In this document: piece after piece, positions 47,201 to 64,000 of the stretch | Layout: the number at the start of each line of letters is the position of its first letter | Position numbering within the stretch: the stretch's first letter is position 1 | Assembly: GCA_964657925.1 (NCBI GenBank) | Contig: CAZZWK010000020.1 | Span: forward strand, 1,359 to 65,358 | From: an uncultured Dictyobacter sp. | GTDB lineage: Bacteria > Chloroflexota > Ktedonobacteria > Ktedonobacterales > Ktedonobacteraceae | Direction of reading: 5' to 3' | Length of the DNA stretch: 64,000 nucleotides | The notes under the pieces: generated by a model | The model's database searches: none | Told to the model about the DNA's origin: nothing | Seen by the model: the letters and a program-made list of their open reading frames with translations, nothing else | Position numbers and translations under genes: made by a program

Positions 47201-47314
47201 TTTACTGCGACCAATAATCGTAACGGCCTTGGTAATCGGGAAAGTACTTTGAGTGAGCGAACCAGCAAGAAAGGTAATCGAAGCCATTATTTGTGGTTTT
47301 TGTTCGAGAGCCAC
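44249..47314 (-). CDS. Triple-FHA-domain ABC transporter (FHA x3, ABC ATPase, ABC-2/ABCG-type permease), Rv1747-like architecture
   Basis: 1021 aa. The FHA cores are VTIIGRSKKNDIVVTDTVVSRVHARL, VVNIGRDPHNDIVINEANISRLHLRL and AIVIGRSPDNDVVLNHPQVSAHHTRL. Walker A is GGSGAGKTTLLDALSG and the signature is LSGGQRKRVSIA. The C-terminal part is a multi-TM ABC-2 domain. GTG 47314 is preceded by aagggga. Confidence 0.85.
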   Translation of the reverse strand: MALEQKPQIMASITFLAGSLTQSTFPITKAVTIIGRSKKNDIVVTDTVVSRVHARLIYGDDVWKIEKLSQTSKVTLNEEAVEQAELFDGAIVGLGEKVNFVFSLTRIDTSQPTTVIAVPAAQDQDRVVTDAHLDVQAASAEPASEYPTPERIERSPSTEIASFAAMGLSSIEVTDNTTGSRRVYPLLKEVVNIGRDPHNDIVINEANISRLHLRLVHEKEQWVLLHPHPDQPRTMNGLIYQGNVIKGDEPFRKVLAHRDIFRIGNEYGLLVTLRYLDGNNPREAAPRIQPIQLGSTAIVIGRSPDNDVVLNHPQVSAHHTRLVQEQETYRLTDLDSTNHTYINGVQADSQLLQVNDEIRIGPFRLVYTQGRLMPFDESNGIRIDALNLTKVGSNQVMLLNDISLSIPARSFVALVGGSGAGKTTLLDALSGLRPAHEGAVFYNGQDYYRNLAVFSSQLGYVPQDDIIHRELTVERALYYAAKLRLPRDFQEAQIALRIDEVLDDVEMKHRRSLLISQLSGGQRKRVSIALELLAKPSIFFLDEPTSGLDPGLDRKMMVLLRKLADKGHTIVLVTHATNNINVCDYVCFLAQGGNLAYFGPPEEAKAYFQQPDFAEIYSVLEPSEEKRTVPLEARETFENSQTYQRYVSERLSQMPKSGTQYLREQKQQVSASRRGALRRQFLLLTRRYIELLRNDFGNLAILLLQAPLFGLLLLVFIKGVGPDGFNRLNVLQCPATAAIVAVNGYPDVPTPNNPVVSQSCQRVENFLRDDAAGKAYAHARGGAINALQDFIEPGQDYQPTVLFLMAFAAIMFGCINAIREFVKEVPIYRRERTVNLGIVPYMFSKIAVLGLLCLLQSLVLVGCVAIFDPFRYSILLPPFLEVYITVALTSIAGLMLGLLVSAVSPNNDRAMSFLPLILLPQVIFSGTIFPLTNWFLQYPAMLFPIRWAMAALGSSVGLHSDKLNKDQLFGNTYTYHSTLFSIYSQQEAWHYLLLMWLALVVMILLLGVGIGYFLKRKDIQK

Positions 47315-47676: not shown

Positions 47677-49044
47677 ATGACGTGGCAAACATACCTCGAA
47701 GAACATCAACCTCAGCACCAGGATGAACTCCTGCAATTTCTCAGTATCCCCAGTATTTCCTCGCTACCCGCGCATGCCGAGGCCGTACAACAGGCTGCAC
47801 AATGGGTAGCCAACCGTTTGCGCACCGCAGGTCTGGAACAAGTACAAATTTTGCCTACCGGCGGCCACCCCGTCGTCTATGGCGAATGGCTGCATGCACC
47901 AGGAAAACCAACTGTGCTAATCTATGGTCATTTTGATACTCAACCGGTGGACCCGCTTGATCTCTGGACGCACCCACCCTTTGCACCTACGATCATCGAT
48001 GATCGCGTCTATGCCCGCGGCGCTTCCGATGATAAGGGCAACATGTTTACTCCCATTCTGGGTGTCGAGGCATTGCTCAAAGCGAATGGATCGCTCCCCA
48101 TCAACATCAAATTTTTTCTGGAAGGGCAGGAGGAGATCGGCAGTCCACAACTACCAGCTTTTATCGCCAGTCATCGCCAGCTACTGGCCTGCGACCTCGT
48201 GCTCAGTTCCGACGGTGGTCAGTACAGCGAGGACCAACCTGAGTTGATGCTCTCGGCCAAAGGCCTGGTCGGAATGCAAATCGATGTATATGGAGCAAAA
48301 AGTGATCTCCACTCGGGCATGTACGGCGGTGCAGTCCCCAATCCCATTCACGCACTCACCGCCCTGCTCGCCTCTTTGCACAGTCCCGAGGGCAAAATCC
48401 TCGTCGAAGGGTTCTATGATTCGGTGCTTCCACTCTCGGATGCGGATCGCGCTGCCATCACTACTATTCCATTCGATGCACAAGAGTATCAGCACAATGT
48501 CGGAGTAACAACGCTATTGTCCGAGCCAGGCTATACTCCCCAGGAACACCTGGCCGCACGGCCCACGCTGGAAATCAACGGTATCTGGGGCGGTTTCCAG
48601 GGAGAGGGTGTAAAGACCGTGCTTCCTGCCGAGGCGCACGCGAAAATTACCTGTCGCCTGGTCGCCGATCAAGAACCTGCCCACATCGCCGACCTGATCG
48701 CCAGTCATATTGCACAACACACTCCCGCGGGAGTCCATGTCAGCATGCATCCCCTGCCCGGTTCTGCTCGTCCATATCTCATCCCGGCTGATCACTGGGG
48801 CAATCAGGCGGCAAAGGATGTGCTTCAGGACCTCTACGGGAAAACGCCATATCATAGCCGTTTGGGTGGCAGTATTCCCGTGTGCGAACTGTTCCTGACC
48901 CACCTGAACGCCTATACCGTCGGCTTCGCTTTCGGTCTCAATGATGAGCAGATTCATGCCCCAGATGAATTCTATCGCCTCTCCAGCTTCCGACGCGGCC
49001 CCATAGCATACTGCAAGATTTTGCAGCAACTGGCGCAACAGTAA
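47677..49044 (+). CDS. M20-family metallopeptidase (dipeptidase/ArgE-DapE type)
   Basis: 455 aa. It has VLIYGHFDTQPVD, ARGASDDKG and EGQEEIGSP motifs. Confidence 0.85.
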   Translation: MTWQTYLEEHQPQHQDELLQFLSIPSISSLPAHAEAVQQAAQWVANRLRTAGLEQVQILPTGGHPVVYGEWLHAPGKPTVLIYGHFDTQPVDPLDLWTHPPFAPTIIDDRVYARGASDDKGNMFTPILGVEALLKANGSLPINIKFFLEGQEEIGSPQLPAFIASHRQLLACDLVLSSDGGQYSEDQPELMLSAKGLVGMQIDVYGAKSDLHSGMYGGAVPNPIHALTALLASLHSPEGKILVEGFYDSVLPLSDADRAAITTIPFDAQEYQHNVGVTTLLSEPGYTPQEHLAARPTLEINGIWGGFQGEGVKTVLPAEAHAKITCRLVADQEPAHIADLIASHIAQHTPAGVHVSMHPLPGSARPYLIPADHWGNQAAKDVLQDLYGKTPYHSRLGGSIPVCELFLTHLNAYTVGFAFGLNDEQIHAPDEFYRLSSFRRGPIAYCKILQQLAQQ

Positions 49045-49347: not shown

Positions 49348-50115
49348 ATGATACCCAATGACCTCCACTTTATTTATGTGGGAGGCAAACCTTTCTCACT
49401 TATCCATTATCTAGCCATCAAGTCAGCCTGTATCGTCAACAATCCTCGGCAGGCAACCCTTCACTATAGTCAGGAACCTGCTGGAGAATGGTGGGACAAA
49501 ACACGACCGTATGTCCAGGCGGTACAGGTTGTCGCACCCTCGACAATCGCAGGCACTCCCATCCAGGCCCTTGAACATGCGGTGGACCTGATGCGTTTAT
49601 CTATTTTGCAAGAATATGGAGGCATCTACCTGGATATCGACGTTATCTGCACCCAACCTTTTACCCCCTTGTTAAACTATCCCTGCGTCCTGGGCGAGCA
49701 GGGGGTCGACGGGAAGAAAGGTCTGTGTAACGCGGTTATACTCGCGGAAAAAGGTGCTTTCTTTCTGCAAAAATGGATCGAAGGCTTCGATTCCAGTACC
49801 TCCCTCTGGTCCGGCTTTCGGGCACAAGGACACGATGAGCACTGGGACGAGATGTCTGTAAAGTATCCTATGTATCTAGCCCACATGTTTCCCGAACAAC
49901 TTTGTATCCAGAACTATAAAAAATTTTACTGGCCCTGTTATTATCCATCTCACCTCGAACTTCTCTTCACCCAGCGAGGATGCAGTTTTCCTGAAGCGTA
50001 CTGCATCCATCTTTGGGAATCTCGCTCGTGGCACCGCTACCTACAGACGATCACGATAAACGATGTGCGCAAGAACGACACCAACTTCGCGCACATCGTT
50101 TCCCGCTTCCTCTAA
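49348..50115 (+). CDS. Glycosyltransferase with a DXD motif (GT32/OCH1-like sugar-transferase domain)
   Basis: 255 aa. MRLSILQEYGGIYLDIDVIC matches the conserved region of this family. Confidence 0.6.
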   Translation: MIPNDLHFIYVGGKPFSLIHYLAIKSACIVNNPRQATLHYSQEPAGEWWDKTRPYVQAVQVVAPSTIAGTPIQALEHAVDLMRLSILQEYGGIYLDIDVICTQPFTPLLNYPCVLGEQGVDGKKGLCNAVILAEKGAFFLQKWIEGFDSSTSLWSGFRAQGHDEHWDEMSVKYPMYLAHMFPEQLCIQNYKKFYWPCYYPSHLELLFTQRGCSFPEAYCIHLWESRSWHRYLQTITINDVRKNDTNFAHIVSRFL

Positions 50116-50173: not shown

Positions 50174-53100
50174 TTAAAGGTTCATAGCATTGACCCGCAC
50201 GACCAGTTGTGCTCGATTATGAATACCGAGCTTGCTGTAAATATTTTTGACATACCACTTCACTGTGCTCTCGGCAATCACCATTTCACGCGCGATCTCC
50301 TGGTTTGACATTCCCGTCACCGCGCAACGTACAACCGCAAGCTCCCTCTCATTAAGTAAACCGGAGTTCGATTTTGCCACGACAACACCAGGAACGTGTG
50401 CTTTTTTTTCTAGCAGACCCAGCAGCTCACCACCATAAAGAGAGATAGCATCAGAAACAGCGCCATGCTTCAGCATTTCAGCAAGTAAGACACTCATAGG
50501 CCGCCCTTCGTCGATGAAAAGGCGCACGTATCTCTCGGGCATGGCAAGCTCAAGGGCACGCAACAGCATAGCTAGCGCCTGCTCAAGCTTTTGCTGATGC
50601 TGGTACACCAGACCCTGTAACAAGAGGGACTCGATTAAAATACGCTCCTGCCCGATCGCTTGCGCCCTCTGCTGCACCCGCCCCAATCTTTCGCATGCTT
50701 CATCCAATCGATTTTGAAAGAGTGCAAGGCGCGCAAGCACCAGTTGTTCAAGCGTAGACACATAGTTGCCCGCAAAGGTCGCTTCCCATTCACTCATGGC
50801 TCCGATATCGGCCTGCGCCAGCGCTAGCTTCATATGCTGGGCCCGCGCGGCTACCACAATCCAGGAATAAGAATTATCGTACATCATGTATTGCTCGGTA
50901 TGATAAATGATGCTCTTTGCCTCGATCTGGTCTCCTTGCGCATATTTTACACGAGCAAGCAAGGTGTTTCCATACATATGCATCAATTTATGTTCCCACC
51001 GCTTGCTGAGCGCTATCCCCCGCTGCAAATACTCCTCCGCCCGCCCCAGATCGTTCCACTCGTAGAGGATAATTCCAGCATCCAGATAGGCCGCCGCAGT
51101 CATCCAGAAAGCAGCACACGCCTCTCTCTCAGCCACCAGTTGAAAAATCTGTTGCAGAATGTCGAATGCCCTCTGATAATGGTTATAAGCCATCTGCACC
51201 GTCTCTATACCATAGAGCGCGAACACAAGCGTATAGAGATTATCCGTCACCAGTCCGATCTGGTGCGCGCGAAAAAATGCGTGATCCGCGTCACTGATAT
51301 CTTCATTTAACCAGTAGGCACTCCCTAAAATAAGCTCACAGAGCCCACGTTGAAACAGGTCCCCCTGTGGCAGGTACTCTAAAGCCTGATGCGCAAAAGT
51401 GATGGAGCGAGAAACATCGCCTTTGATGTTGAACAGATGCGCGCGAATGACGGCTATCATACACTTGACCACTCCCTCCTGCCCTCCATTAGCAGCAGAA
51501 TCTCTATCCTGATCCTTATGCTCGGCCAGTTGCAACCACGGCTCGATTAGATCGGTCTGCTGGCCGGTCGCCATCAACAGCCACGCCTTGATCAGGGAAA
51601 GCAGCGAGGAAGAACGAACAAAGCTTTCTGGCAACAGTTGCATCCAGCGCAACAAGGTGTTAACCTCGTTTCGCCGCATCATTGGCTCTCCAATACGTAC
51701 CAGCAAAGACACCGCCCGTTCATAATCGGCAGCCAGTAACGCATGTTCCACTGCCTCCGATAAATAGTGCTGCTCCTCATACCAGGAACAGGCCCGCTGG
51801 TGGAGTCCAGACAACTGCTCAGGGTTGCTTTTGCGCAGTCGCTCGCGCAAAAAGTCTCGGAAAAGATGGTGATAGCGATACCAGTACTGCTGGTGATCGA
51901 GCGGAACCAGGAAAAGATCCACCTTCTTCAAATAATCCTGAACATCACGAGTACTGTTTTGATCGGTAAGAAACAGACAAAGCGAACTACAAAAACGGTC
52001 GGGAACGGATGTCTTCAAAAGGAAATCCTGCATCTGCTGAGATTGCCGCTGAAACACCTCCTCGGCGAAGTACTCGAACAGGTATGTGTTATCACCAATA
52101 ATCGCACTGGCTAAATGCGAAAAATCGGCAGGATTCTCGTGATGCTGCAAAGAAATCGCCATCAGCTGAATACCGGTAATCCAACCCTCGGTATAACGCA
52201 TGAGCAGATCAACAAGTTCGTGTGAGGGATGAAACTCCATCACCTGCCGCAGGAACAAGGTCACTTCATTATCGGTAAAAGAGAGCTCGTCTATCTGCAC
52301 CTCGTTAAGTTGCCCATGACTGCGTAGACGCGAGAGGCTCAATGCCGGACGCGTACGGCTGGAAATGAAAAGATGCGCCTGAGGAGGTAAGTGATCAAGG
52401 AAAAATATCAGCAACTGATTGATATCAGGGTCATGAATCAAGTGATAATCGTCAAGCACCAGCCCAAAATCATAGGGGATAGCGGCAAAAATATTGACGA
52501 GCGATGTGAGCACAGCTTCGACCGGAGTCGTTAATGAAAGCTGCATTTCGTATTCACCAATATCGGGTACGACCTTTTCGAGCGCGGTAATAATGTAACG
52601 CCAGAAACGGAGTCGATCGTTGTCTTTTTCATCAAGGGACAACCATCCAACAACTGGGGCACACTTCCAGGCCCAACTGCTGAGTAGCGTCGTTTTACCC
52701 GACCCCGCCGGCGCGCAAATCAGGGTCAACTTTTTGTGCATACCAAGCTGCAATTTATCGATGAGGCGTGGACGCACAATAACATGAGCAGCAAGTGGTG
52801 GCACCGACAGTTTGGTCACCAGAATTGGATCAATCTTGCTCTCCTCATGCAGTATCGATGTGTGCACCGGTTTTTGCAGCGATCTGCGCGCTTTCGCAAC
52901 AAGCGAAGTCGCCACTTCATTGAGGCGATCAGGGCTCAAAAGTTCCGCTTTACCTAGATAAGCCGTATACAGCATTCCAGATTTCCGGTAGTAAGCGTAC
53001 CAATACATGCCACCTGCACGCTGCTCTCTGCGTGCCGTCATCGTTGCCTCTCCGTCAGGAAGCTCAAAACGAAAGGTACGGTGATGCTCTAACCACAGCA

Positions 53101-53200
53101 ACCACTCCTGAGAGCCAACCTCAAGCGTCTGAGAGAAATAAGCTTCCTCGCTACCCAACTCTAAACGACCACGATACACCTTTGGAACCGAGTTCGCCAT
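50174..53200 (-). CDS. LAL-family (MalT-like large ATP-binding LuxR) transcriptional regulator
   Basis: 1008 aa. It has the P-loop LICAPAGSGKTTLL, a long helical/TPR-like middle region, and the C-terminal LuxR HTH LNERELAVVRCAVTGMSNQEIAREMVIAESTVKWYVKNIYSKLGIHNRAQLV. Confidence 0.85.
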   Translation of the reverse strand: MANSVPKVYRGRLELGSEEAYFSQTLEVGSQEWLLWLEHHRTFRFELPDGEATMTARREQRAGGMYWYAYYRKSGMLYTAYLGKAELLSPDRLNEVATSLVAKARRSLQKPVHTSILHEESKIDPILVTKLSVPPLAAHVIVRPRLIDKLQLGMHKKLTLICAPAGSGKTTLLSSWAWKCAPVVGWLSLDEKDNDRLRFWRYIITALEKVVPDIGEYEMQLSLTTPVEAVLTSLVNIFAAIPYDFGLVLDDYHLIHDPDINQLLIFFLDHLPPQAHLFISSRTRPALSLSRLRSHGQLNEVQIDELSFTDNEVTLFLRQVMEFHPSHELVDLLMRYTEGWITGIQLMAISLQHHENPADFSHLASAIIGDNTYLFEYFAEEVFQRQSQQMQDFLLKTSVPDRFCSSLCLFLTDQNSTRDVQDYLKKVDLFLVPLDHQQYWYRYHHLFRDFLRERLRKSNPEQLSGLHQRACSWYEEQHYLSEAVEHALLAADYERAVSLLVRIGEPMMRRNEVNTLLRWMQLLPESFVRSSSLLSLIKAWLLMATGQQTDLIEPWLQLAEHKDQDRDSAANGGQEGVVKCMIAVIRAHLFNIKGDVSRSITFAHQALEYLPQGDLFQRGLCELILGSAYWLNEDISDADHAFFRAHQIGLVTDNLYTLVFALYGIETVQMAYNHYQRAFDILQQIFQLVAEREACAAFWMTAAAYLDAGIILYEWNDLGRAEEYLQRGIALSKRWEHKLMHMYGNTLLARVKYAQGDQIEAKSIIYHTEQYMMYDNSYSWIVVAARAQHMKLALAQADIGAMSEWEATFAGNYVSTLEQLVLARLALFQNRLDEACERLGRVQQRAQAIGQERILIESLLLQGLVYQHQQKLEQALAMLLRALELAMPERYVRLFIDEGRPMSVLLAEMLKHGAVSDAISLYGGELLGLLEKKAHVPGVVVAKSNSGLLNERELAVVRCAVTGMSNQEIAREMVIAESTVKWYVKNIYSKLGIHNRAQLVVRVNAMNL

Positions 53201-53692: not shown

Positions 53693-53762
53693 AATAGTAT
53701 TTGCAAGTTTGACAAACTTATTTCAACATCCATTAAAGTTTGTCAAACTTGCAAATACTATT
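53693..53762. promoter_or_regulatory. Perfect 27-bp inverted repeat (16-nt spacer) overlapping the -35 of the lanA promoter; candidate operator
   Basis: The arms are aatagtatttgcaagtttgacaaactt (53693..53719) and aagtttgtcaaacttgcaaatactatt (53736..53762). Each arm contains the near-palindrome AAGTTTGnCAAACTT. Confidence 0.55.
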
Positions 53763-53789
53763 GACATCTTCGACAAAGTATTTTATATA
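53761..53789 (+). promoter_or_regulatory. Sigma70-like promoter of the lanA-lanL operon
   Basis: TTGACA (53761..53766), a 17-nt spacer, then TATATA (53784..53789). The SD aggaggg (53817..53823) precedes ATG 53830. Confidence 0.55.
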
Positions 53790-53829
53790 TGAATAAAGCG
53801 TACTATTTTTATCAGCCAGGAGGGATTCC

Positions 53830-54084
53830 ATGCGTCTTCACACCGCTCGTGCTTTGCTCGCCACTATCGTCCAACGCGTTGCCTCGGATGCTGCCTATCT
53901 AGAGCAATTGCGCTGCTCACCCGTCGAAACACTGGTCAAAGAGGGACTCCCCTACGATATCATCGAAGATTTTTTGCAAGAAACTCATCTACAGGCGGAA
54001 GTTACCGGCTACCTCCTGCCAGGCTGTGCCAATACCTGCGCGCTGACCACATCTGAAGCCTACCCCGAACAATTTTCCCTGTAG
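53830..54084 (+). CDS. Candidate lanthipeptide precursor with an NHLP/Nif11-like leader
   Basis: 84 aa: MRLHTARALLATIVQRVASDAAYLEQLRCSPVETLVKEGLPYDIIEDFLQETHLQAEVTGYLLPGCANTCALTTSEAYPEQFSL. It ends 28 nt upstream of the LanL-type synthetase gene and has a strong promoter and SD. The C-terminal region carries 2 Cys and several Ser/Thr. Confidence 0.6.
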   Translation: MRLHTARALLATIVQRVASDAAYLEQLRCSPVETLVKEGLPYDIIEDFLQETHLQAEVTGYLLPGCANTCALTTSEAYPEQFSL

Positions 54085-54112
54085 TCGGCTGTAGCAGGCA
54101 AAGGAAATTTTC

Positions 54113-56851
54113 ATGCACCTACCATCCGAGACCGCACTGGATCAACTGTGCCAATGTCTTGCAAACGAGATGCACCGCCTATACCGCAAAGTACCAGCAG
54201 TGGAAACACGCTGGATTGTGCGACAAAGCACTGATCCCGCGCAACTCTGGCTCGTATTCACCCATCAAAGTACCACCCTGGTCGAACAGGGATGGAAACT
54301 GCATATCGCAGCCGACCCGTCTACCGCAATACCGCTGCTCAAACGGGTGCTCGTGCCACTGCTGCTTTCCAACTCGTCGTTTAAAGTGATTGCCTCCCTG
54401 CATCATCTCACCGCTCTCAACCAGGGGCAGTACGGATGGAGCCAGATCGGAAAATATATCACTATTTATCCAGCAAGCCAGCAAGAGGCGGTCCGACTGG
54501 CAAAGCTGCTCGATCGGCGCACACGCTCTCTATCCACGCTGACCATCCCTTCCGACCGGGTCTTGCGTGCGGGTAGCACGGTCCACTACCGCTACGGGAG
54601 CTTCCACAACACGCTTTCCATGCAGGAACCCACGGGTCTGATCTCACCGGCTATCCGCGCTCCCACAGGCGAACTGATACCTGACCGTCGTAACCATTCC
54701 TACGCGGTCCCGCCATGGTGCAGCGACCCGTTCAATGAAGCAGGCACCAATAGCGAACTCCCCGCAACGCAACGCATCCTGGCCGAACGCTACCTTCTCG
54801 CCAGGGTCATCGCTACCTCACTCAATCACACACTCTATCTCGCCGGTGACCTGCACAATGCACGCTCCTGCGTGATCAAGGGTCCCGGCAGCGTGTGGAA
54901 GCAGGGCGCAGAGCAAATCAACCAGGGTTTATTGCATGAAGCACATATACTCACCACACTCTCATCCCTGCCTCAGCTACCCAGACTCTACACCTGCATT
55001 CAGCAAGGAACACACATTTTCCTGGTTCTCGAAGATATTGTCGGTGAATCCCTTCACGACTATATGAAGAATATGCGAAATCAGGGCAAACCTCTCGAAA
55101 TTTCCCTGCTTCTAAATTGGGCCCGGCAGATAGCTACCATCCTCAAAGCCATTCATGCACACGAACTCGTCTACGCGGACCTCAAACCCTCAAACATCAT
55201 CATCGCGACGAGCGGTCAACTTCGCTTGCTCGATTTCGAACTGACCGATCGATGGGCAAGCCTACACATAGGCACTCGTGGAACAAGGGGCTACAGCTCT
55301 CCAGCGCGCCTCTCTGCTCTTCCTCTCGATCCCACCGACGATATCTACAGTTTCGGAGCCCTGCTCTACTTCATGGTTACAGCAGCCGATCCCGCGGAAG
55401 CACCACACCCCACAGAGTTACTGCGCCGCGCGCCGCACTGGTTTTCAGCGGCAGGCGTGTTGCTGCAAGACCTTATAGCGCACTGTCTGAGCCCAGTACC
55501 AACCTACACTGCGATGCAACAGGTGGTAGAGGCACTCGATGAACTCCACCCCCCACAGCCATATACGATACCATCCATATCAGATGCGCCAGGCACATGG
55601 AACCAGATCTCACTGAAACTGCTCCAAACGCTCCACGCCTCGGCCTCCCACAGCGCCAAGCAGGAGGGAATCTTCTGGCGTAGTTCCCACCCTATCAGCT
55701 ACGGCCTGGCTACCCGCGATATCAATACAGGCAACGCGGGCACACTGCTGGCACTCAGCGAACTGGTCGACGCCCATCCTGAATCAAGTCGACATTCTCT
55801 GCTGACCCAGGCCGCGCACTGCATGCGGCGCGCTCCACTCATCTGTGGACAGCCACTACCGGGTCTCTATATAGGTGAAGCAGGCGTGGGAGCAGCCCTG
55901 CTCAGGGCAGGACAGGTCTTGCACGACAGCGCACTGATCAGCGCAGCCGTCGAACGCGGCAAGCTCGTCGCATCTCTTGCCTACCAATCACCTGATCTCT
56001 TTCACGGTACCGCTGGTCGTTTACGCTTTCACCTCTGGCTCTGGGACGAAACGGGTGAGCGAGAACATCTCCTGCACGCGCTATCCTGCGGCGACCACCT
56101 GTTGGAGAGCGCGCGTACCAATGAGCAGCAGGAAACATTCTGGACAATTCCAGCCGGCTATCAGGCGCTCAGTGGACAAACCTATCTTGGCTATGCACAT
56201 GGCACAGCCGGTATCGCCGATGCCCTGCTAGATCTCTTTGAAACTACCGGTGACCAACGCTATGTCAATACACTCTGCGCAGCCGCCCGCTGGCTAGCAC
56301 GACAGGCGGTTATTGGGCCGGACGATGAAGTGGCATGGCCCAAACGCGAGGGCGAAGCGGTGACAGCTCCTTTCTGGTGCCACGGCGCCACCGGCATCGG
56401 CCAGTTCTTTTTGCACTTGGCACGACATACGTTCTTTGCACCAGCTGCCGAGCTCGCAATGCGCGCCGCTAACACGCTCAGCAAAACAACACTGTGGGCC
56501 AATCCAACCCAGTGCCACGGCCTGGCGGGCAACATTGAATTCCTGCTCGATATCTATCAGGCAACCGGAGAGTATAGGTACCGCGAGCATGCCTTCTCGC
56601 TCGCGCGCTGTCTCTACGCGTTTGAAGAAGCGCGCCACGGTCTCAGCGTTTTCCCATCAGAGGACCCCACAATCTATACTCCCGACTACATGGTTGGTTA
56701 TGCTGGCGTCGCTATGTGCGCCCTACGTCTCGCCTCACCGGAACACCGACCTCGCCAGCTCAGTCGAGCAGGATTTCGCTATCGCGACATTCAAGAGCAT
56801 ACACTGGGAAACGTATCTCCTCACAAGTCCGATACTTATAGTACCTTTTAA
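54113..56851 (+). CDS. Three-domain lanthipeptide synthetase (lyase, Ser/Thr kinase, LanC-like cyclase with Zn ligands), class IV LanL-type
   Basis: 912 aa. The N-terminal lyase-type block is GWKLHIAADPS...GKYITIYP. The kinase motifs are YADLKPSNIII and LLDFE. The cyclase motifs are GNAGTLLAL, GEAGVGAALLRAG, HGTAG, GYAHGTAGIADALLDL, FWCHGATGIG and QCHGLAGNIEFLLD. The Cys and Cys-His metal ligands are present. Confidence 0.85.
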   Translation: MHLPSETALDQLCQCLANEMHRLYRKVPAVETRWIVRQSTDPAQLWLVFTHQSTTLVEQGWKLHIAADPSTAIPLLKRVLVPLLLSNSSFKVIASLHHLTALNQGQYGWSQIGKYITIYPASQQEAVRLAKLLDRRTRSLSTLTIPSDRVLRAGSTVHYRYGSFHNTLSMQEPTGLISPAIRAPTGELIPDRRNHSYAVPPWCSDPFNEAGTNSELPATQRILAERYLLARVIATSLNHTLYLAGDLHNARSCVIKGPGSVWKQGAEQINQGLLHEAHILTTLSSLPQLPRLYTCIQQGTHIFLVLEDIVGESLHDYMKNMRNQGKPLEISLLLNWARQIATILKAIHAHELVYADLKPSNIIIATSGQLRLLDFELTDRWASLHIGTRGTRGYSSPARLSALPLDPTDDIYSFGALLYFMVTAADPAEAPHPTELLRRAPHWFSAAGVLLQDLIAHCLSPVPTYTAMQQVVEALDELHPPQPYTIPSISDAPGTWNQISLKLLQTLHASASHSAKQEGIFWRSSHPISYGLATRDINTGNAGTLLALSELVDAHPESSRHSLLTQAAHCMRRAPLICGQPLPGLYIGEAGVGAALLRAGQVLHDSALISAAVERGKLVASLAYQSPDLFHGTAGRLRFHLWLWDETGEREHLLHALSCGDHLLESARTNEQQETFWTIPAGYQALSGQTYLGYAHGTAGIADALLDLFETTGDQRYVNTLCAAARWLARQAVIGPDDEVAWPKREGEAVTAPFWCHGATGIGQFFLHLARHTFFAPAAELAMRAANTLSKTTLWANPTQCHGLAGNIEFLLDIYQATGEYRYREHAFSLARCLYAFEEARHGLSVFPSEDPTIYTPDYMVGYAGVAMCALRLASPEHRPRQLSRAGFRYRDIQEHTLGNVSPHKSDTYSTF

Positions 56852-56956
56852 GAATATGACAGAGGAAAGTCATACTAATTTCTAGATGATTGAATTTCTT
56901 CCCTATCTGTGCTACCTTATAGCGAAAGCTAAACGTTAGAGGGAAGACATAGAATC

Positions 56957-57145
56957 ATGGCTATTAATTTAGAAGATCTCATCTGGATCGTCGATGCAGA
57001 GCAACGCTATAACCGGTCACGCGAGTGGTTCTTGAAACAGATCAAACTCAAAAAACTGCACAAAACAAAAATCGCGGGCGACCGCAAAGTCTACTTGCTA
57101 CGCGGCGAGATCGAGCAATTGCTCCAACCACGCATGCTCGACTGA
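56957..57145 (+). CDS. Small helix-turn-helix (excisionase/MerR-like) DNA-binding protein, tentative
   Basis: 62 aa: MAINLEDLIWIVDAEQRYNRSREWFLKQIKLKKLHKTKIAGDRKVYLLRGEIEQLL. The pattern resembles the excisionase-type HTH_17 fold. It lies between convergent lanthipeptide operons. Confidence 0.4.
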   Translation: MAINLEDLIWIVDAEQRYNRSREWFLKQIKLKKLHKTKIAGDRKVYLLRGEIEQLLQPRMLD

Positions 57146-57185
57146 AACACAGTCTACCCGCGGGAGAGCTGATACTCTCCCGCCA

Positions 57186-58760
57186 TCACGCATAACGACC
57201 GGGGGCAAGAATACTATTCGGGTCCAGGGCTGCCTTTATACGTTGTTGCAGGACGGCGGATTCATCGATGGTCGCCGGAAGTCCATGCATCGATTGCACG
57301 CCCAGACGATAAGGAAAATATCCTGCTGTAGCCAGTGCGCATAGGAGTTCGTCATGACACGCCATGACGCGCTCATCCTCTCCCACGACATCACGATCAT
57401 ACAGTAAGGCAACCGTAATGATGAGACTGCGTTCGTTCACGCACTCCAGCGAGAGGTGCGGCTCCATGCGGTGAGCAAAGCACACCGAGCTAATGATGTT
57501 CGTGGCGGCTCGCACGTGTTCGCCAGTCAGTGGCACTAGAGGCGGAACCCAGATCACGCCACAGCGGTCGCGGTCAGGGTGCAGATCGGTGCTTGGCAAT
57601 ATCGGTTTATGCCAGTAAGTTGTACGCATGCCACCATCGTTTTGTACCGTGTCCAGGCTGCCTCTCACCGTCAGCAGGTCGACAATGCCAGTTTCAGCGC
57701 TCATACCTTTTATTACCTGGATAGAGTTCTCTTTAAAGGAAAAAAAACGTAGAGTATCGACCTTGTCATAAAGTGTGTCACGAATATATGCACACATGGC
57801 ATCGCACAACTGCTTGCTCGGGTATTGAAGCGCGATGGAGCCACTCCACGCTCCAACCCCGAGCGCATCACGCACGGAACGCATAAGCTCGGGTGTCAAA
57901 AATCCCTCCCCTCCCGTGGGTAACTGTGGGGCCTGCACGAGCAACATCGAGAGGAACTTGTACTCGTTGTACAGGTAGATTGAAGCCGGGCAGGCCCCCT
58001 CGAACTTCAACACGTATAACGCCTCGATCAACGCCTCAAGACCAGCATCGTCTTTCAATGTGAATAGGCAAGATACCGCTTCACTGGGTGTGGGCAACAG
58101 CCAGATCGTCATACGAGTTACAATACCGAAGTTCGATTGCGTAAAGATACCATCAAAGTAGGGTCCAACACTCCAACGGCTCACCGCACCAGCCTGCGCG
58201 TGCGGGAAACGATTGAAGCCGGTGTGCACGCATTCACCCGTGGGCAGAACCACCTCGAAATCGCACACATAGGCGAAACGGTCTGCGTAGCGTCCCATAC
58301 CCAATCCCCTCTCCAGGGTATTGCCAATCAGACTGGTATCCATAGGTCCACCTACCACACTGACGAAATGCACAGACCCGTGCTCGCGCAAAAATTGGTG
58401 TACCTGGCGCACCGTCACACCAGGCTCCACCGTCACATAGGCCAGGCGCTCATCGTAATCGATAATCCGCCGCATCCGTTGCAGGTGCAAAACCACACAT
58501 CCATCCTGTACAGGCACCTGGGAACCATATCCCCAGTTCTTGCCATTACTGACCGGGTAAAGTGGCACCCTGTACTCATTGGCAATACGCACACAGGCTT
58601 GCACCTGTTCTCTATCTGCCGGTCGCAGCACGGCTGGCACACGCTGGCTGGTAGCAAACGTGGCCGTCTGCACCAGCGCGAGCTCATGTGGATCGGTAAC
58701 TACATACTCATCCCCGATCGCTCCCCTCCAGGCCCGCAATGCTTCAGCAAAAGTATTCAC
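57186..58760 (-). CDS. FAD-linked oxidase (PCMH/FAD_binding_4 type)
   Basis: 524 aa. PAVLRPADREQVQACVRIANEYRVPLYPVSNGKNWGYGS and HLQRMRRIIDYDERLAYVTVEPGVT are typical of the VAO/PCMH flavoprotein N-terminus. GTG 58760 has the SD aaggggg, which lies inside the end of the upstream ABC gene. Confidence 0.75.
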   Translation of the reverse strand: MNTFAEALRAWRGAIGDEYVVTDPHELALVQTATFATSQRVPAVLRPADREQVQACVRIANEYRVPLYPVSNGKNWGYGSQVPVQDGCVVLHLQRMRRIIDYDERLAYVTVEPGVTVRQVHQFLREHGSVHFVSVVGGPMDTSLIGNTLERGLGMGRYADRFAYVCDFEVVLPTGECVHTGFNRFPHAQAGAVSRWSVGPYFDGIFTQSNFGIVTRMTIWLLPTPSEAVSCLFTLKDDAGLEALIEALYVLKFEGACPASIYLYNEYKFLSMLLVQAPQLPTGGEGFLTPELMRSVRDALGVGAWSGSIALQYPSKQLCDAMCAYIRDTLYDKVDTLRFFSFKENSIQVIKGMSAETGIVDLLTVRGSLDTVQNDGGMRTTYWHKPILPSTDLHPDRDRCGVIWVPPLVPLTGEHVRAATNIISSVCFAHRMEPHLSLECVNERSLIITVALLYDRDVVGEDERVMACHDELLCALATAGYFPYRLGVQSMHGLPATIDESAVLQQRIKAALDPNSILAPGRYA

Positions 58761-58771
58761 GCCCTACCCCC

Positions 58772-61700
58772 TTAGTTTTGAGCATGCAACTCGTATGCCA
58801 GCACCACCTGTTCGGCTCCCACCGCCGTCGTGGGCGTCGTTAATAAACCAACCCCACCCATCACGTCGTCCTGACGCATGTGAGCCTGGACCAGAGCAAG
58901 TTCGTTACGACGCTGCTTTATCGTCTGCCAGACCCGCTCATACATTTTTGGGTCTCGCTCAAGCAGTTGCATAAAAGCGCCCTTCGTCAACACATAGCAC
59001 TCGGTAGGTAACGCTGCCCTCACCGAAGCAGTACGCGGTTGTTCGTCCAGTAGAGAAATCTCTCCGAAGAATTCGCCCTCATCTAACACATTGATCCTTC
59101 GCCTGCTGCCATGGTGGGCGAGGAGCACTTCGACCTGACCGAAATTGACGATGTAAAAGGCATCGCCGGGCTCACCCTGGTTGATAATATACTCTCCGGC
59201 AGCATAACGCCTGCGTACCATTTGTGCTGCCACTCTGGCAAGACCATCCTCATCTATCGTCTTGAGCAACTCGATAGCGCGCAGACGCGCGACATCGCTA
59301 GGGGGAACTGCCTGCTCGTTTCCGGCACCCTTATTGCTGACCCCAACCTGCTCCTGGTAGAGTCTGGCGTAAAGGCCCCCTCGCTTGAGGAGTTCTTCGT
59401 GACTTCCCTGCTCAACAAGCTTACCACGCTCCAGGACCAGGATATGGTCAGCGGTCGCGGCCACCGTCAACCTGTGCGTCACACTGATCGTCGTCCTGCC
59501 CTGCTTCACATCGTCCAGCGTCTCCAAAATCTCGTGCTCCGTCTGCGCATCTAAGGCGCTGGTAGCCTCATCCAGGATGAGAACCCGCGGATCGCGCAAC
59601 AACGCGCGAGCAATTGCCAGCCGCTGGCGCTGCCCGCCACTCATGCGCACCCCACGCTCACCCAGCATCGTGTTGTAACCCGCTGGCAATGAACTGATGT
59701 ACTCGTCGAGCTTCGCTCCTCTGGCCGCCGCGATCACCTCGTTATCCGTCGCATCCTTTCTTCCGATGGCAATGTTTTCGCGCACCGTTGTATCAAAAAT
59801 AAAGGTATCCTGAAAGACAAGGCCAATCTGCTCTCTTAAAGAAGACAGCGTCACATCGCGCACGTCGTGCCCATCCCAGAGGATACGCCCCGCGACAGGG
59901 TCCCAGAAACGCAAGAGTAGGCTAATCATGCTGCTCTTGCCCGAACCAGAGGGACCGACAATGGCGACGTTCGCACCAACGGGGATAGTCACACTCAGAT
60001 CGTCCAGGATAATACGGTCGCTTTCATAGCTGAAGCGCACATGATCGAACACCAATGCATCCTTTACAACAGGCAGCTCGATAGCTTCCAGCTTATCGGC
60101 GATGGCGATTGGCTCACTGTGCAACTCCACAATACGCTCCAGCGAACCAGAGGCGGTCTGGATGGTCTCGATGATGATGCCGAGCAGGGAAACAGGTGTG
60201 AGTAGAGCGGGCAACACGCTCCAGGCCGCCATCAACACCCCGATAGTGATTCGACCTTGAATCACCATGTAGCCCCCGACCCCCAGCACAATCAACTGCT
60301 CCACCAGCGAGGCGAACAGCAGGCTGTTTTGAAACAACGCGGCAATGACTTCCAGACGTACCGCGGCCTTGAGTTGCGCCATCAAACGCGTATGAAACGC
60401 GGCGATCACGCTGTTTTCCAGCCCAAAGGCCTTGATGACCGCGTGGGCGGAAATATTTTCTTGAATGCTCGTAGCGGTCTCACCAGCCAGCCGCTGGCTG
60501 TCCGCGCTGGCCTGCTGGAATCGCTTCCCCATCACGCTGTAGCTTACCATCACTAGCGGAATAATCACGACCACCAGCACACCGATAAGCGGTTGCAGAT
60601 ACAGTAATACGATAAGGGATGTAATCGTTTGCAGTATCATCATAAAGCCATTACCCATGACCTGCGACAGAGCCTGCTGCACCAGTTGGATGTCGCTGGA
60701 GAGGCGTGTCATGAGATCGCCGACCTTCGCTCGCCCATAAAACTGGTGGGTTAATCGCTGCAAATGGTCGAAACTTTCCTGCTGTAGATCGGCCACGACG
60801 TGTTGCACGACAACTGCTGTCAGTTGCGAACGACGTATTCCAATCAACGCGTTGAACAGGAGAAAACCAAACATCGCCAGGGCAAACACGAGCAATAATG
60901 AGACATTTTTATGCGGAATGATGGTGTCGAGCAGAAATTTCGTGGACAGCGGCAGCACTACATTGAAAGTAAGGCCCAGCAAAGAGTACACCATGATTTT
61001 GCTATCGTTCACCCAGTACGGTCTCAGTAAAGGTAAAACAAGCTCAACAAACATGAGCACCGCACTTTTGTGCCCGCTCGCTTTGCGCATGTCGTTCAGC
61101 CACGTCTCTTCAAGCTGGCCTAGAGGACGGTGATACACGCTTAGCGCGGCCTGATCCTGTCGCTCCACATCGTAAATCGTCAAGAATTGCCGCAACGCCT
61201 TGGCGCCATGGGTTGTCAACAGGTAGGCTGTAAAAGAAGCGGCGATATCGCGTTGCAGCGCGGTCTCTCTTTCAGAAGCCGGTTGCGCAAAGATCGAAAC
61301 CGTCCGCCCTTGCTTTAGCTCATCGGTTACGCGCGTGTTCAACTCCTCTATCCCTGTCCCGACCCCAGCAGCGGCGGCCACGACACCTGCCAATCCATTC
61401 AGGAAAAATGGGGAGGAAACGGCGCCCTCACCAAACCATCGCCTGAGCGCGGCCTGCGTGAGCGTCGAGAGCAATTCTTCATCGGCGTCATCGGGATACA
61501 ATACAAAGAAAACCGCGTCTTTGTCCACTCCATCAAGAACGTGGACAAGGTCGCGCTCCGCGCCAGTTGCCAGTCCGCCCTCTGCCGTCAAAAACGCGGC
61601 ATCCACCAGGTAGAGCGCAATCGCTCCGCCCGACTTGGCTGGTACCAGCACCTTTACCAGTTCATCCATAAAACGTTCGAGCCGCGACACCAGCGCTTCC

Positions 61701-61804
61701 ACCTGTCTGCCCGCGATGACATCATTGCCATCTGGCACATGGACGCTCACTCTTTTCCCAGGACACGTATGCCAACGCAAAGGCGCTTTGCCGATTTCGT
61801 TCAT
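58772..61804 (-). CDS. ABC exporter fusion: unknown N-terminal domain (about 240 aa), six-TM ABC domain, ATPase, and C-terminal cyclic-nucleotide-binding (CAP-type) domain
   Basis: 1010 aa. Walker A is GPSGSGKSS, the signature is MSGGQRQRLAIARA and Walker B is LILDEATSALD. The C-terminal YAAGEYIINQGEPGDAFYIVNFGQVEVLL...GEFFGEISLLDEQPRTASVRA is a cNMP-binding fold (nt about 58907..59266). A strong SD aaggaggag precedes ATG 61804. Confidence 0.8.
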   Translation of the reverse strand: MNEIGKAPLRWHTCPGKRVSVHVPDGNDVIAGRQVEALVSRLERFMDELVKVLVPAKSGGAIALYLVDAAFLTAEGGLATGAERDLVHVLDGVDKDAVFFVLYPDDADEELLSTLTQAALRRWFGEGAVSSPFFLNGLAGVVAAAAGVGTGIEELNTRVTDELKQGRTVSIFAQPASERETALQRDIAASFTAYLLTTHGAKALRQFLTIYDVERQDQAALSVYHRPLGQLEETWLNDMRKASGHKSAVLMFVELVLPLLRPYWVNDSKIMVYSLLGLTFNVVLPLSTKFLLDTIIPHKNVSLLLVFALAMFGFLLFNALIGIRRSQLTAVVVQHVVADLQQESFDHLQRLTHQFYGRAKVGDLMTRLSSDIQLVQQALSQVMGNGFMMILQTITSLIVLLYLQPLIGVLVVVIIPLVMVSYSVMGKRFQQASADSQRLAGETATSIQENISAHAVIKAFGLENSVIAAFHTRLMAQLKAAVRLEVIAALFQNSLLFASLVEQLIVLGVGGYMVIQGRITIGVLMAAWSVLPALLTPVSLLGIIIETIQTASGSLERIVELHSEPIAIADKLEAIELPVVKDALVFDHVRFSYESDRIILDDLSVTIPVGANVAIVGPSGSGKSSMISLLLRFWDPVAGRILWDGHDVRDVTLSSLREQIGLVFQDTFIFDTTVRENIAIGRKDATDNEVIAAARGAKLDEYISSLPAGYNTMLGERGVRMSGGQRQRLAIARALLRDPRVLILDEATSALDAQTEHEILETLDDVKQGRTTISVTHRLTVAATADHILVLERGKLVEQGSHEELLKRGGLYARLYQEQVGVSNKGAGNEQAVPPSDVARLRAIELLKTIDEDGLARVAAQMVRRRYAAGEYIINQGEPGDAFYIVNFGQVEVLLAHHGSRRRINVLDEGEFFGEISLLDEQPRTASVRAALPTECYVLTKGAFMQLLERDPKMYERVWQTIKQRRNELALVQAHMRQDDVMGGVGLLTTPTTAVGAEQVVLAYELHAQN

Positions 61805-61859
61805 GTACCTCGCTCCTCCTTAATATACTCGATAGACTTGTATACTCGCCAGCTCTTAA

Positions 61860-64000
61860 CTACCCTGTTCCCACTCCATAGCAAGATGCGTTGCTACCTG
61901 GAACGTAACGAAAACCACGTCGACTGAGTTGACGTGGGCGCTGCCCAGGCTGCGCCAGACGCAGCAGGGACACCAGAATGCCCGCGTACCCCACCAGATA
62001 ATCAGGTGAAATACAGGTAGGCTCATCCGACGGCCACACCAGTTGACCCTCCTGCTCTATGGCAAATGTCTCCAGAATACTCGCCAGGGTAAATGCCTCG
62101 CTAGCATACTTCCGCTCACCCGTCCACTCGAACATGTCCAGCAAGAAATCACTATTGCCAGCCAGACCATGACAGAGCGTAGGACCGCTCCAGCGCGAAC
62201 CAAATGCTACCGTACGTGCCGCGCGCACAACCAGATCGCGGGCGACGAGTTCATGTTGAGCTGCATGCAGCAAGAAAGTACCTATGCCCGCAGCACCATG
62301 ACACCAGTAGACACCAGCCATTTCGCGTTTTTTGTCAGCGACGTACAACGGCCAGTTCACTCCACTACCATCGCGCAGCACAGGCACCGCCAGCTGCTCC
62401 AACAGGCGCGTGACACCTACTACCGGGGCGATAAAACGCTCGTCACCACTCGCCTCATAAAGGTCGAGCAGCGCATCTGCGACTCCGGCAGCCCCATGAG
62501 CGTACCCCACATAGGTCATGCCGGTGAACTCGGCGGGCAACCTCCAGCACACCCTTCCCCCGCCAATATCTTCGGCCTCGGATAAAAGCCAGTCTCCGGC
62601 AACACGAGCCGCCTGCAAGTGCTCCTGTTCTCGCGTCTCTTCCCATACCAGAAGATGGAAACGCAGACGACCAGCAGCACCACTCATGATGTCCTGGCAA
62701 GTGTACGCTTGCCGCGCGACCCAACGACTTTTCTCCGCCGCCGCCTCGATGAGCGCGACATCGCCCAGAATCTGGCCCGCGCGTAGCAACGCGGCTCCGA
62801 CACCCGCCTCCCCCACATAGAGTCCCGGTACCCGATTGGCAATGAGATCTTCGCTGTGTAGCAACCACTGCGCACCCTCTTGCAACACCCTACGATGCGC
62901 TTCAATCCCCAGTGCTCCTACCAATTCCGCCAGTGCAAGCAACGTTCCACCACTACCACAGTTTAACGCTCGTAACGCTCGACCATCGGCAAATTGCACG
63001 CTACTCAGCCAACACATACCCGCACGTTCTGGCTGATGCACAGCGCTCCGACAGAGCGTGTCACCTAACCTGGCCGCAAGCCCCAGGTAGTGATTCGGCG
63101 TCGCCACGAATTCTTGCTGTCGCACAGTGTTAGCGCCATACGCAACAGGATCACTCAGTGCCTCCTGCAAGGCAGTCATTGAGGTGAAGCGCTGTTGTGG
63201 ATCATACTCAAGGCATTTCTCGACGATGCGCACCAATCCCTGGTCCACATCAGGATTGAGTATATCCAGTCGACGCTGCAACAAATTGTCGGGATCAGGC
63301 GCGAGCGAAGGATTGGCCCTGGTAAGCAGGTAGTAGAGGAGCGCACCAAGACTATACACATCATCAGCGACGCTGGCTGCCGCTCCGACTCGATGCTGAG
63401 GTGACATAAATCCTCGCGTGCCGATATCGCTCTTCGCGTGTGCGCTTCCCTCTTCGACCATCAACTCGAAATCGATCAGCCGCAATCTGGAGCCCACCAG
63501 CACATTCGCGGGTTTGAGATCGCGATAGATCAGGCCGCGCGCGTGCAGGTCGCCCAGTATACCGGCCAGCACCCTCGTCCAGGCAATAACTTTGTCGACG
63601 CATAGTTCACCACGCGCGAACAAGCGCTCGGCACAGGCACCTAACGTCTCACCCTGCACCTCCTCCATCACCATGTACAGCGTGCCTTCATGTTCGAGCA
63701 AATCAAAAAACGTGGGGAACGCGGGATCACCAGCCAGGCGCTGCAGCATCTCGGCCTCATAACGCAAAATATCGCGAGCATCTGTGCCGTCCCTATCCAG
63801 GTACGCATTTGGGCGAGCGAATTTGAGCATACAGGAACGACCACGCAATGTATCTACCCCCAACGATACTCCACCTCGTGCGGACAGGTAGGGAGTAAAA
63901 AGTGGTAGATATCGTCCACCAACCAATATATTTGCCGTGGGTGCCTGCGCCACTACCACACCCGCCGCGACAAAAGGATCTTGCAGCCAATCGGGTGCCT
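61860..64000 (-). CDS. Second LanL-type lanthipeptide synthetase (kinase plus Zn-ligand LanC-like domains visible; N-terminal lyase part runs off the window end)
   Basis: The ORF track starts at GTG 63959, but the frame stays open to nt 64000. My translation there reads ...APDWLQDPFVAAG-VVVAQAP, and that segment aligns with PPWCSDPFNEAG of the first synthetase, so the gene is 5'-partial. The kinase motifs are YRDLKPANVLV and LIDFEL. The cyclase motifs are GEAGVGAALLRAG, GYAHGAAGVADALLDL, YWCHGAAGIG and LCHGLAGNSDFLLD. Confidence 0.8.
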   Translation of the reverse strand, partial: APDWLQDPFVAAGVVVAQAPTANILVGGRYLPLFTPYLSARGGVSLGVDTLRGRSCMLKFARPNAYLDRDGTDARDILRYEAEMLQRLAGDPAFPTFFDLLEHEGTLYMVMEEVQGETLGACAERLFARGELCVDKVIAWTRVLAGILGDLHARGLIYRDLKPANVLVGSRLRLIDFELMVEEGSAHAKSDIGTRGFMSPQHRVGAAASVADDVYSLGALLYYLLTRANPSLAPDPDNLLQRRLDILNPDVDQGLVRIVEKCLEYDPQQRFTSMTALQEALSDPVAYGANTVRQQEFVATPNHYLGLAARLGDTLCRSAVHQPERAGMCWLSSVQFADGRALRALNCGSGGTLLALAELVGALGIEAHRRVLQEGAQWLLHSEDLIANRVPGLYVGEAGVGAALLRAGQILGDVALIEAAAEKSRWVARQAYTCQDIMSGAAGRLRFHLLVWEETREQEHLQAARVAGDWLLSEAEDIGGGRVCWRLPAEFTGMTYVGYAHGAAGVADALLDLYEASGDERFIAPVVGVTRLLEQLAVPVLRDGSGVNWPLYVADKKREMAGVYWCHGAAGIGTFLLHAAQHELVARDLVVRAARTVAFGSRWSGPTLCHGLAGNSDFLLDMFEWTGERKYASEAFTLASILETFAIEQEGQLVWPSDEPTCISPDYLVGYAGILVSLLRLAQPGQRPRQLSRRGFRYVPGSNASCYGVGTG

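Follow-up and report, generated by a model that had tools for sequence, protein, structure and literature searches.

Gene content of the locus

The window analysed here is a stretch of 64,000 nucleotides (nt) from an uncultured Dictyobacter sp. of the Chloroflexota (contig CAZZWK010000020.1, positions 1,359 to 65,358), and our subject is the locus at its downstream end, which carries most of a biosynthetic gene cluster for two lanthipeptides, very probably of class IV. Open reading frames (ORFs) were called across the window and their proteins scanned with Pfam and NCBIfam profiles (E-values are given in parentheses). For comparison, loci and contigs were fetched from public genomes and metagenomes; they are labelled L with a number.

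On the plus strand, the gene of precursor 1 (53830..54084, 84 amino acids (aa)) is followed by that of the synthetase LanL1 (54113..56851, 912 aa). This unit is convergent with a minus-strand operon in the order LanL2 (61860..>64000), ATP-binding cassette (ABC) exporter (58772..61804, 1010 aa) and flavoprotein oxidase (57186..58760, 524 aa), with spacers of 55 nt between LanL2 and the exporter and 11 nt between the exporter and the oxidase. A LAL regulator (50174..53200, minus strand, 1008 aa) is transcribed divergently from precursor 1. A preceding sequence-only reading had listed all of these ORFs with the same lengths, strands and spacers; its assignment of two class IV LanL synthetases, an exporter with a cyclic-nucleotide-binding (cNMP) domain, an oxidase linked to flavin adenine dinucleotide (FAD) and a LAL regulator is borne out by the Pfam and NCBIfam profiles. 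A glycosyltransferase gene (49348..50115) and an M20 peptidase gene (47677..49044) were also considered as cluster members; neither has a counterpart in related clusters, and both were left outside the boundary. An Rfam scan of the window matched no RNA family.

The same reading had called the pairing of these components undescribed for class IV. The pairing is not confined to this locus: across public genomes and metagenomes it recurs as a conserved type of cluster, and the presence of FAD oxidoreductases, glycosyltransferases and acetyltransferases in class IV clusters had already been remarked on by Walker et al., who did not pursue it (PMC7268733). The locus belongs to an uncharacterised but widespread variant of class IV lanthipeptide clusters, a branch that occurs in Chloroflexota, Actinomycetota, Acidobacteriota, Abditibacteriota and others. 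This branch has its own leader family, a C-x-x-S/T core grammar and a dedicated exporter with a cyclic-nucleotide sensor; in one sub-branch, Tyr-terminated cores go closely together with a flavoenzyme of the phenol-oxidising kind. Of the lanthipeptide classes, class IV has been explored least, with a handful of known products, nearly all from actinomycetes and none known to carry a tailoring modification.

Class IV synthetases and the precursor family

LanL1 has the full lyase-kinase-cyclase layout, with a lyase domain at residues ~40-210 (RamC_N, PF25816; 4.7e-41 at residues 40-210), a kinase at ~220-440 (Pkinase; 1e-25) and a zinc cyclase at 536-878 (LANC_like; 4.3e-42). LanL2 is represented by 712 codons in the window, which cover the kinase (Pkinase; 3.2e-25) and the zinc cyclase (LANC_like; 4.6e-34); the lyase domain falls past position 64000. 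Its gene had been described as 5'-partial, and so it proved: positions 63959-63998 hold no in-frame stop, the residues APDWLQDPF align at about residue 200 of LanL1, and the match to the NCBIfam class IV model begins at model position 182. As a stand-in for the complete enzyme we used P0001, a full-length protein of 912 aa with 95% identity, which carries the RamC_N lyase domain (2.7e-47). The only contig found with the same proteins (Logan ERR13306335_98668) stops short of the window end, and the 95%-identical ENA contig L002, in which a run of N falls inside the leader of precursor 2, likewise stood in for the sequence past that end.

Both synthetases contain the WCHG and CHG motifs that the sequence-only reading had taken as zinc-ligand signatures; in LanL2 the motifs read QDIMSG, GYAHG, YWCHG and LCHG. 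In a 17-sequence alignment, Asp628, His696, Cys756, Cys801 and His802 of LanL1 were invariant, as were the kinase motifs D-x-K-x-x-N and DFE. The five cyclase residues correspond, with the same spacing, to the experimentally validated Asp642, His710, Cys769, Cys814 and His815 of SgbL (PMC9292228). The best PDB match of LanL1 was 8car, over its whole length (2.7e-50); the class III enzyme ThurKC aligned over the lyase and kinase only, not over the cyclase. The class IV profile (NF038150) outscored the class III profile (NF038151) by roughly a factor of two, with 635.7 against 346.1 bits for LanL1 and 644.9 against 379.3 bits for P0001. Several close homologues are also named class IV LanL by NCBI.

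Both enzymes score narrowly under the 650-bit class IV cut-off and also match the class III model (cut-off 575 bits), these cut-offs being curated thresholds and not mechanistic features. Against this, the class IV model leads by ~265-290 bits, the Cys-Cys-His zinc ligands and the Asp/His acid pair are retained without exception, the cyclase aligns with 8car and not with the ThurKC cyclase, and the cores are without the S-x-x-S-x-x-x-C labionin motif, which leaves the idea of misread class III-like (LanKC) enzymes making labionin or mixed rings hardly credible. The class IV assignment made beforehand is upheld, and we hold the identity of the locus as a class IV lanthipeptide cluster with high confidence.

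The same domain layout is found in VenL (venezuelin), SgbL (globisporin), CuvL and SflL (SflA). The window synthetases, which are of Chloroflexota origin, are only ~40% identical to actinobacterial relatives and ~39% identical to each other, representing separate lineages. In total, 529 LanL relatives were found in GTDB species representatives, distributed over Ktedonobacteria, Chloroflexia, Thermomicrobiales, Actinomycetota, Acidobacteriota, Myxococcota, Abditibacteriota and one cyanobacterium. The best named matches, like the orthologues of precursor 1 and of a conserved 62-aa gene, indicate a Ktedonobacteria-like source. The characterised class IV products are indeed few, as had been stated: the venezuelin type, SflA and two peptides from the FAST-RiPPs screen (PMC8341899, PMC9576775). 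Our literature search returned no characterised class IV peptide from Chloroflexota. Unlike the known class IV systems, the window combines an NHLP-clan leader ending in EV(S/T)GY and C-x-x-S/T cores with a flavoprotein, an exporter dedicated to the cluster and two synthetases, each served by a precursor type of its own.

The 84-aa ORF proposed earlier as a precursor matches a hidden Markov model (HMM) of the leader family (2e-24) and has relatives adjoining LanL genes, and can be accepted as such. Its leader spans residues 1-61 and ends in AEVTGY; the predicted core, residues 62-84 (nt 54013-54081), reads LLPGCANTCALTTSEAYPEQFSL. The leader HMM found precursor 1 as its sole match in the window, with no second precursor. 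Searches with tblastn and the leader HMM located relatives of this peptide in dozens of loci, beside LanL genes and often repeated in tandem, with the leader consensus R..A....R..SDP.F..QL..DP...L..AGLP.....DF..E....EVSGY. Orthologues of precursor 1 from Ktedonosporobacter, Dictyobacter, Tengunoibacter and metagenome-assembled genomes (MAGs) are 56-67% identical to it and share the core pattern P.CA[NT][TS]CA[LI][TS]....YP. One Abditibacteriaceae MAG (L022, 8712-9772) encodes three precursors of this leader family in tandem, with cores unusually rich in Tyr, such as VQYADCTYYTDYVVYGCTYYTY; they adjoin a LanL gene and a cNMP-ABC exporter gene, with no oxidase within 10 kb.

The leader had been described as NHLP/Nif11-like. 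Across 30 family members, the NHLP models NF038399 and TIGR03793 matched 24 and 21, respectively (E <= 0.1; best 1e-7 and 3e-6), and the Pfam family Frankia_peptide matched 11; Nif11 matches were confined to 2-5 of the 30 and were weak. The NHLP half of that description is thus retained and the Nif11 half dropped. Precursor 1 owes its own NHLP assignment to the matches of its family, since its individual match is weak. Judged by sequence, the leader family is a remote, non-canonical relative of the NHLP clan: nearly all members end in EV(S/T)GY and not in Gly-Gly, and because the leader has no Gly-Gly site and the exporter no C39 peptidase, we do not regard this as a canonical NHLP system. NHLP/Nif11 leaders have been reported for class II families only (PMC7268733). 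The prochlorosin-type class II systems (LanM, PCAT) resemble the window in their long helical leader, a relative of the alpha subunit of nitrile hydratase, in having several precursors whose cores vary while the leader is conserved, and in their in-cluster ABC exporter; they differ in using LanM in place of LanL and in having the Gly-Gly site. Genome-mining rules now miss most class IV precursors, and this leader family could improve them.

The cores follow a simple grammar. Among 70 distinct cores, C-x-x-[ST] occurred 117 times against 33 ± 5 in shuffled sequences (z = 17, a value that overstates independence, as the sequences are related). The motif takes in 71% of all Cys residues and is found in tandem in 31 cores; the canonical order, [ST]-x-x-C, was barely above shuffle expectation. 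From this enrichment one would expect small rings that have the Cys on the N-terminal side of the dehydro residue. In the proposed pathway, the helical leader ending in EVTGY would present the core to LanL1. By homology, the kinase would phosphorylate Ser and Thr, the lyase would eliminate the phosphate to give dehydroalanine or dehydrobutyrine, and the zinc cyclase would add Cys thiols to these residues. The two conserved C-x-x-T units would then yield two small, non-overlapping methyllanthionine rings, Cys66-Thr69 and Cys70-Thr73. SflA likewise has two non-overlapping methyllanthionine rings (PMC8341899). We regard the reversed polarity of the C-x-x-T rings as an evenly balanced prediction.

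No leader protease was seen within the window. Related clusters, unlike the window, contain an S8 peptidase; class III and class IV clusters usually come without a protease (PMC8341899). An ORF upstream in L002 was considered as a subtilisin-like leader peptidase and discarded, as it does not resemble the S8 peptidase found in L164 and has no Pfam match.

The flavoprotein and the tyrosine-terminated cores

The protein encoded by the last gene of the minus-strand operon belongs to the 4-phenol-oxidising subgroup of the VAO/PCMH flavoproteins. It matches FAD_binding_4 (PF01565; 1e-27) and aligns with VAD (PDB 8s7s; 5.3e-68, residues 14-522), PCMH (1dii; 2.7e-62) and eugenol oxidase (5fxd; 4e-57). 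What had been called an FAD-linked oxidase is a full-length homologue of the 4-phenol oxidoreductases, ~30-35% identical to the solved enzymes. It shares with VAO, PCMH, eugenol oxidase and VAD the active-site Tyr and the Tyr-Arg pair: Tyr78 corresponds to the Tyr in the VAD sequence GKNFAYGG, and Tyr484-Arg485 to the pair in VAD GEYRTH, a role that we assign by alignment. Among 83 homologues these residues are conserved in 78, 83 and 83, respectively, and Tyr382-Trp383 and Cys400 are invariant. The known 4-phenol oxidoreductases act on para-substituted phenols, in which they abstract a hydride at the benzylic carbon and so form a p-quinone methide (PMC7617285). Their substrates are small lignin-derived phenols, whereas the window gene lies in an operon for a ribosomally synthesised and post-translationally modified peptide (RiPP), and its presumed substrate is a peptidyl Tyr. 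The literature search returned no report of a VAO-type enzyme in a RiPP or lanthipeptide pathway.

Close homologues of the oxidase co-occur with LanL and the cNMP exporter on at least eight other contigs (L019, L081-L085, L087, L164, L165). L081, L085 and L087 share the gene order of the window, LanL-ABC(cNMP)-oxidase. In L165, the gene of a 357-377-aa protein is inserted between ABC and oxidase, and L083 and L019 are arranged as oxidase-precursor-LanL-...-ABC. In L082/L164, the oxidase shares a 38-kb contig with both LanL types. The 357-377-aa protein is encoded directly upstream of the oxidase in L083 and L165.

We next consider the precursor of LanL2. In the relative L002, the precursor encoded upstream of P0001 reads ...AEVSGY/QANFSDYCCITGIY, with a core ending in ...FSDYCCITGIY. 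By analogy, precursor 2 would lie just beyond position 64000, with the predicted sequence ...EVSGY/QANFSDYCCITGIY. Every oxidase cluster with a readable LanL2-type precursor encodes one with a Cys-Cys pair and a C-terminal Tyr. These fall into three core types unrelated to one another: SDYCCIT[AGV]IY in L002, L081, L087 (two copies) and L164; CCQGGT[AV]CN..Y in L083 and L019; and SDSNCCGSNY in L165. The combination of Cys-Cys and C-terminal Tyr was present in 7 of the 15 distinct precursors from oxidase-containing LanL loci and in none of the 55 from elsewhere (Fisher p = 5e-6, in a test that ignores shared ancestry).

On this basis we consider it likely, with good confidence, that the oxidase belongs to the lanthipeptide pathway; the cluster identity and the membership of the oxidase, taken jointly, are probable. 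After ring formation, the flavoprotein would oxidise a Tyr of precursor 2, most likely the invariant C-terminal one; the choice of this residue is tentative and comes close to an even call without reaching it. Benzylic hydride abstraction would give a peptidyl p-quinone methide, which could be hydrated to beta-hydroxy-Tyr, tautomerised or decarboxylated to a styryl-amide end, or trapped by a thiol. A fuller proposal, which we put forward as possible and distinctly more doubtful, is that a VAO/PCMH-type flavoprotein acts here as a RiPP tailoring enzyme on the invariant C-terminal Tyr of a Cys-Cys class IV lanthipeptide, by way of a peptidyl p-quinone methide. The outcome would be a modification so far not known from lanthipeptides (a 4-hydroxystyryl-amide terminus by oxidative decarboxylation, a Cys-S-C(beta)-Tyr crosslink or a glycosylated beta-hydroxy-Tyr), combined with reversed-polarity C-x-x-T rings and cyclic-nucleotide-gated export. 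Among characterised class IV peptides, none is known to bear a secondary modification (PMC7268733). If true, tailoring by the oxidase would be the first one in this class, and the enzyme could bring quinone-methide chemistry to the RiPP toolbox.

A flavoprotein tied to a C-terminal residue has a parallel in EpiD and MicD (LanD), which form aminovinyl-cysteine (AviCys) or avionin. These flavoproteins, too, are encoded alongside a lanthipeptide synthetase and are linked to a conserved residue at the C-terminus of the core. They have the HFCD fold and target a C-terminal Cys; the window oxidase has the VAO/PCMH fold, and the conserved C-terminal residue is Tyr. The end of epidermin, ...NSYCC, resembles the ...SDYCC... 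stretch of the precursor 2 type.

A different chemistry within the same pathway would be hydroxylation of the benzylic position of Tyr, mainly to make or accompany a glycosylation site, leading to glycosylated lanthipeptides. In the enzyme family, a benzylic alcohol formed by hydrating the quinone methide is a standard outcome (PMC7617285), and glycosyltransferase genes lie beside the oxidase or in its operon in L081, L082, L084, L085 (together with a nucleotidyl transferase), L087 and L164. The window itself encodes a small DXD glycosyltransferase at 49348..50115. That gene, however, has no homologue in the related clusters, the oxidase operon of the window is without a glycosyltransferase, and L083, L019 and L165 have the oxidase together with the unrelated 357-377-aa protein instead of a glycosyltransferase. 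We judge this route unlikely; it competes with our proposal on the chemistry and leaves pathway membership untouched.

The flavoprotein could also be an ordinary catabolic 4-cresol or 4-alkylphenol dehydrogenase, or a housekeeping oxidase, that is a mere neighbour and leaves the peptides untouched. Several sources name its homologues '4-cresol dehydrogenase (hydroxylating)', and most of 80 metagenomic homologues (42-46% identity) have no LanL, exporter or precursor nearby. We also count in favour of this reading that no gene for a cytochrome or another electron-acceptor partner is present. Against it, the oxidase gene is only 11 nt from the ABC gene on the same strand, and homologues with at least 50% identity, where the contig is long enough to judge, all lie within LanL/ABC-cNMP clusters. 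The link to precursors with Cys-Cys and a terminal Tyr carboxylate is strict, and the next clade out is likewise found beside NHLP-like peptides. We consider a catabolic role quite improbable.

Several points weigh against our overall reading of the locus, beyond the sub-threshold class IV scores given above. Covalent attachment of FAD uses His in the oxidases and Tyr in PCMH-type dehydrogenases; the His387 that links FAD in VAD is replaced by Val402 in the window oxidase. The sequence of precursor 2 is taken from a relative, not from the window, and we infer both the ring topology and the oxidase reaction. Precursor 1 matches the NHLP clan weakly, through NF038399 only (17.4 bits against a cut-off of 40; E = 0.0034). 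A C-terminal Tyr is also present in six precursors at loci where no oxidase was seen. Moreover, oxidases of 46-48% identity with the same Tyr/Tyr/Arg residues adjoin another NHLP-like peptide family that ends in Cys, in which some tails have no Tyr; Tyr may therefore not be the substrate throughout the clade.

The loci of these more distant oxidases (L093-L100 and L113) contain multi-copy NHLP-like peptides ending in ...[WFL]C (e.g., L094, 4194-4442, 6742-6987 and 10057-10302) and a 685-aa protein in which two cNMP-binding domains are combined with a PqqD-like domain and an M50 peptidase domain (e.g., L094, 7836-9893). They look like a separate, uncharacterised RiPP system that has the oxidase and the cyclic-nucleotide theme in common with the window.

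Exporter, regulatory region and neighbouring genes

The ABC exporter (58772..61804, minus strand) consists of an N-domain (residues 1-255, nt 61040-61804), a transmembrane region (271-536; ABC_membrane, 1.7e-36), an ATPase (600-749; ABC_tran, 2.4e-33) and a C-terminal cNMP domain (864-951, nt 58952-59215; cNMP_binding, PF00027, 1.8e-25). The cNMP domain has a canonical FGE...PRTAS phosphate-binding cassette, with the sequence GEFFGEISLLDEQPRTASVRA. Neither Pfam nor NCBIfam detected a C39 peptidase domain, in contrast to PCAT and LanT transporters.

The N-domain is probably a degenerate peptidase-MA-like domain that binds peptide, an assignment made through its homologues: 8 of 14 homologous N-domains match Peptidase_MA_2 (best 4.2e-5). 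HExxH is absent from their alignment, and the usual position of the third ligand is variable. The first 255 residues of the window exporter gave no direct profile match; with the N-domain alone, a word-indexed homology search returned no match, a profile search of PDB sequences gave noise, and a single-sequence AlphaFold model had a predicted local distance difference test (pLDDT) score of 37.

This three-part exporter stands beside LanL in at least 15 loci from several phyla. The related clusters L082/L164, L083, L087 and L165 encode adenylate/guanylate-cyclase-NB-ARC-TPR (STAND) regulators, GAF-domain proteins and an S8 peptidase beside LanL, none of which is encoded in the window, and the cyclase regulators and GAF proteins fit with cyclic-nucleotide control. 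The ABC protein would export the products, with its degenerate N-domain probably binding the leader or the peptide and its cNMP domain probably coupling export to a cyclic-nucleotide signal; such gating is a tentative suggestion, held at less than even confidence.

The LAL regulator comprises an NTPase region, a MalT-like TPR region (TPR_MalT; 1.7e-59) and a C-terminal LuxR/GerE helix-turn-helix (HTH; GerE, 2e-17), and also matches the NCBIfam MalT model below its cut-off (3.2e-134). The divergent arrangement of regulator and precursor recurs in L005 (42% identity). The regulator would control transcription of precursor 1, possibly together with a 27-nt perfect inverted repeat (53693-53719 and 53736-53762, 16-nt spacer), a candidate operator that abuts the -35 hexamer. 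The repeat occurs once in the window (0.02 matches expected by chance), and each arm contains the near-palindrome AAGTTTG(A/T)CAAACTT. The candidate sigma-70-type promoter, TTGACA-17-TATATA (53761..53789, plus strand), was read by eye; a promoter scanner that demands T at position 6 of the -10 box made no call there. TTGACAA-type -35 boxes recur 5' of orthologous precursors. An AGGAGG ribosome-binding site (53818-53823) lies 6 nt ahead of the precursor 1 ATG.

There is a sizeable chance, short of an even one, that the repeat is no operator; it may instead form a hairpin in the RNA, be what remains of a terminator or of a mobile element, or consist of two -35-like boxes that face each other. 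Apart from same-contig copies, it is absent from the other fetched loci and is not kept in orthologous promoters, which also counts against the operator, and the regions upstream of orthologous precursors yielded no common motif. The -35 consensus, TTGACA, is found within each arm, and a second, imperfect 22-nt hairpin lies 50 nt upstream. In favour of the operator, the symmetry is 27 of 27, each arm holds a 7-1-7 palindrome, and the centres lie 31 bp apart, as is typical of a site for a dimeric regulator; the repeat is also placed between the regulator gene and its likely target, directly at the -35 hexamer. The second inverted repeat (53595-53646) has 22-nt arms with 86% complementarity and an 8-nt loop (GGAGGGAAAAA...TTTTTCCCTCC), and one of its arms pairs with the ribosome-binding region of precursor 1 (53629-53641 with 53813-53825, 92%).

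Between the convergent operons, downstream of LanL1, lies a gene for a conserved 62-aa protein (56957..57145, plus strand) that the sequence-only reading had missed. Copies with 70-81% identity occur in L004, L007, L012, L059, L080 and L082/L164; the protein is better conserved than the precursors and is always near precursor-1-type genes. It has no Pfam or NCBIfam match, and its AF2 model (pLDDT 60) gave no Foldseek match below E = 6. To the eye, its sequence pattern loosely resembles an excisionase/MerR-type HTH.

Elsewhere in the window, a 1021-aa protein (44249..47314, minus strand) consists of three FHA domains, an ABC ATPase and an ABC-2 permease; apart from generic ABC similarity, nothing corresponds to it in related lanthipeptide loci. 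[quoted passage not shown] Finally, the gene at 39536..40780 (plus strand) encodes a bacterial member of the thaumatin family (3.4e-77), whose domains occur mostly in eukaryotes, in fusion with a carbohydrate-binding module of type CBM56.

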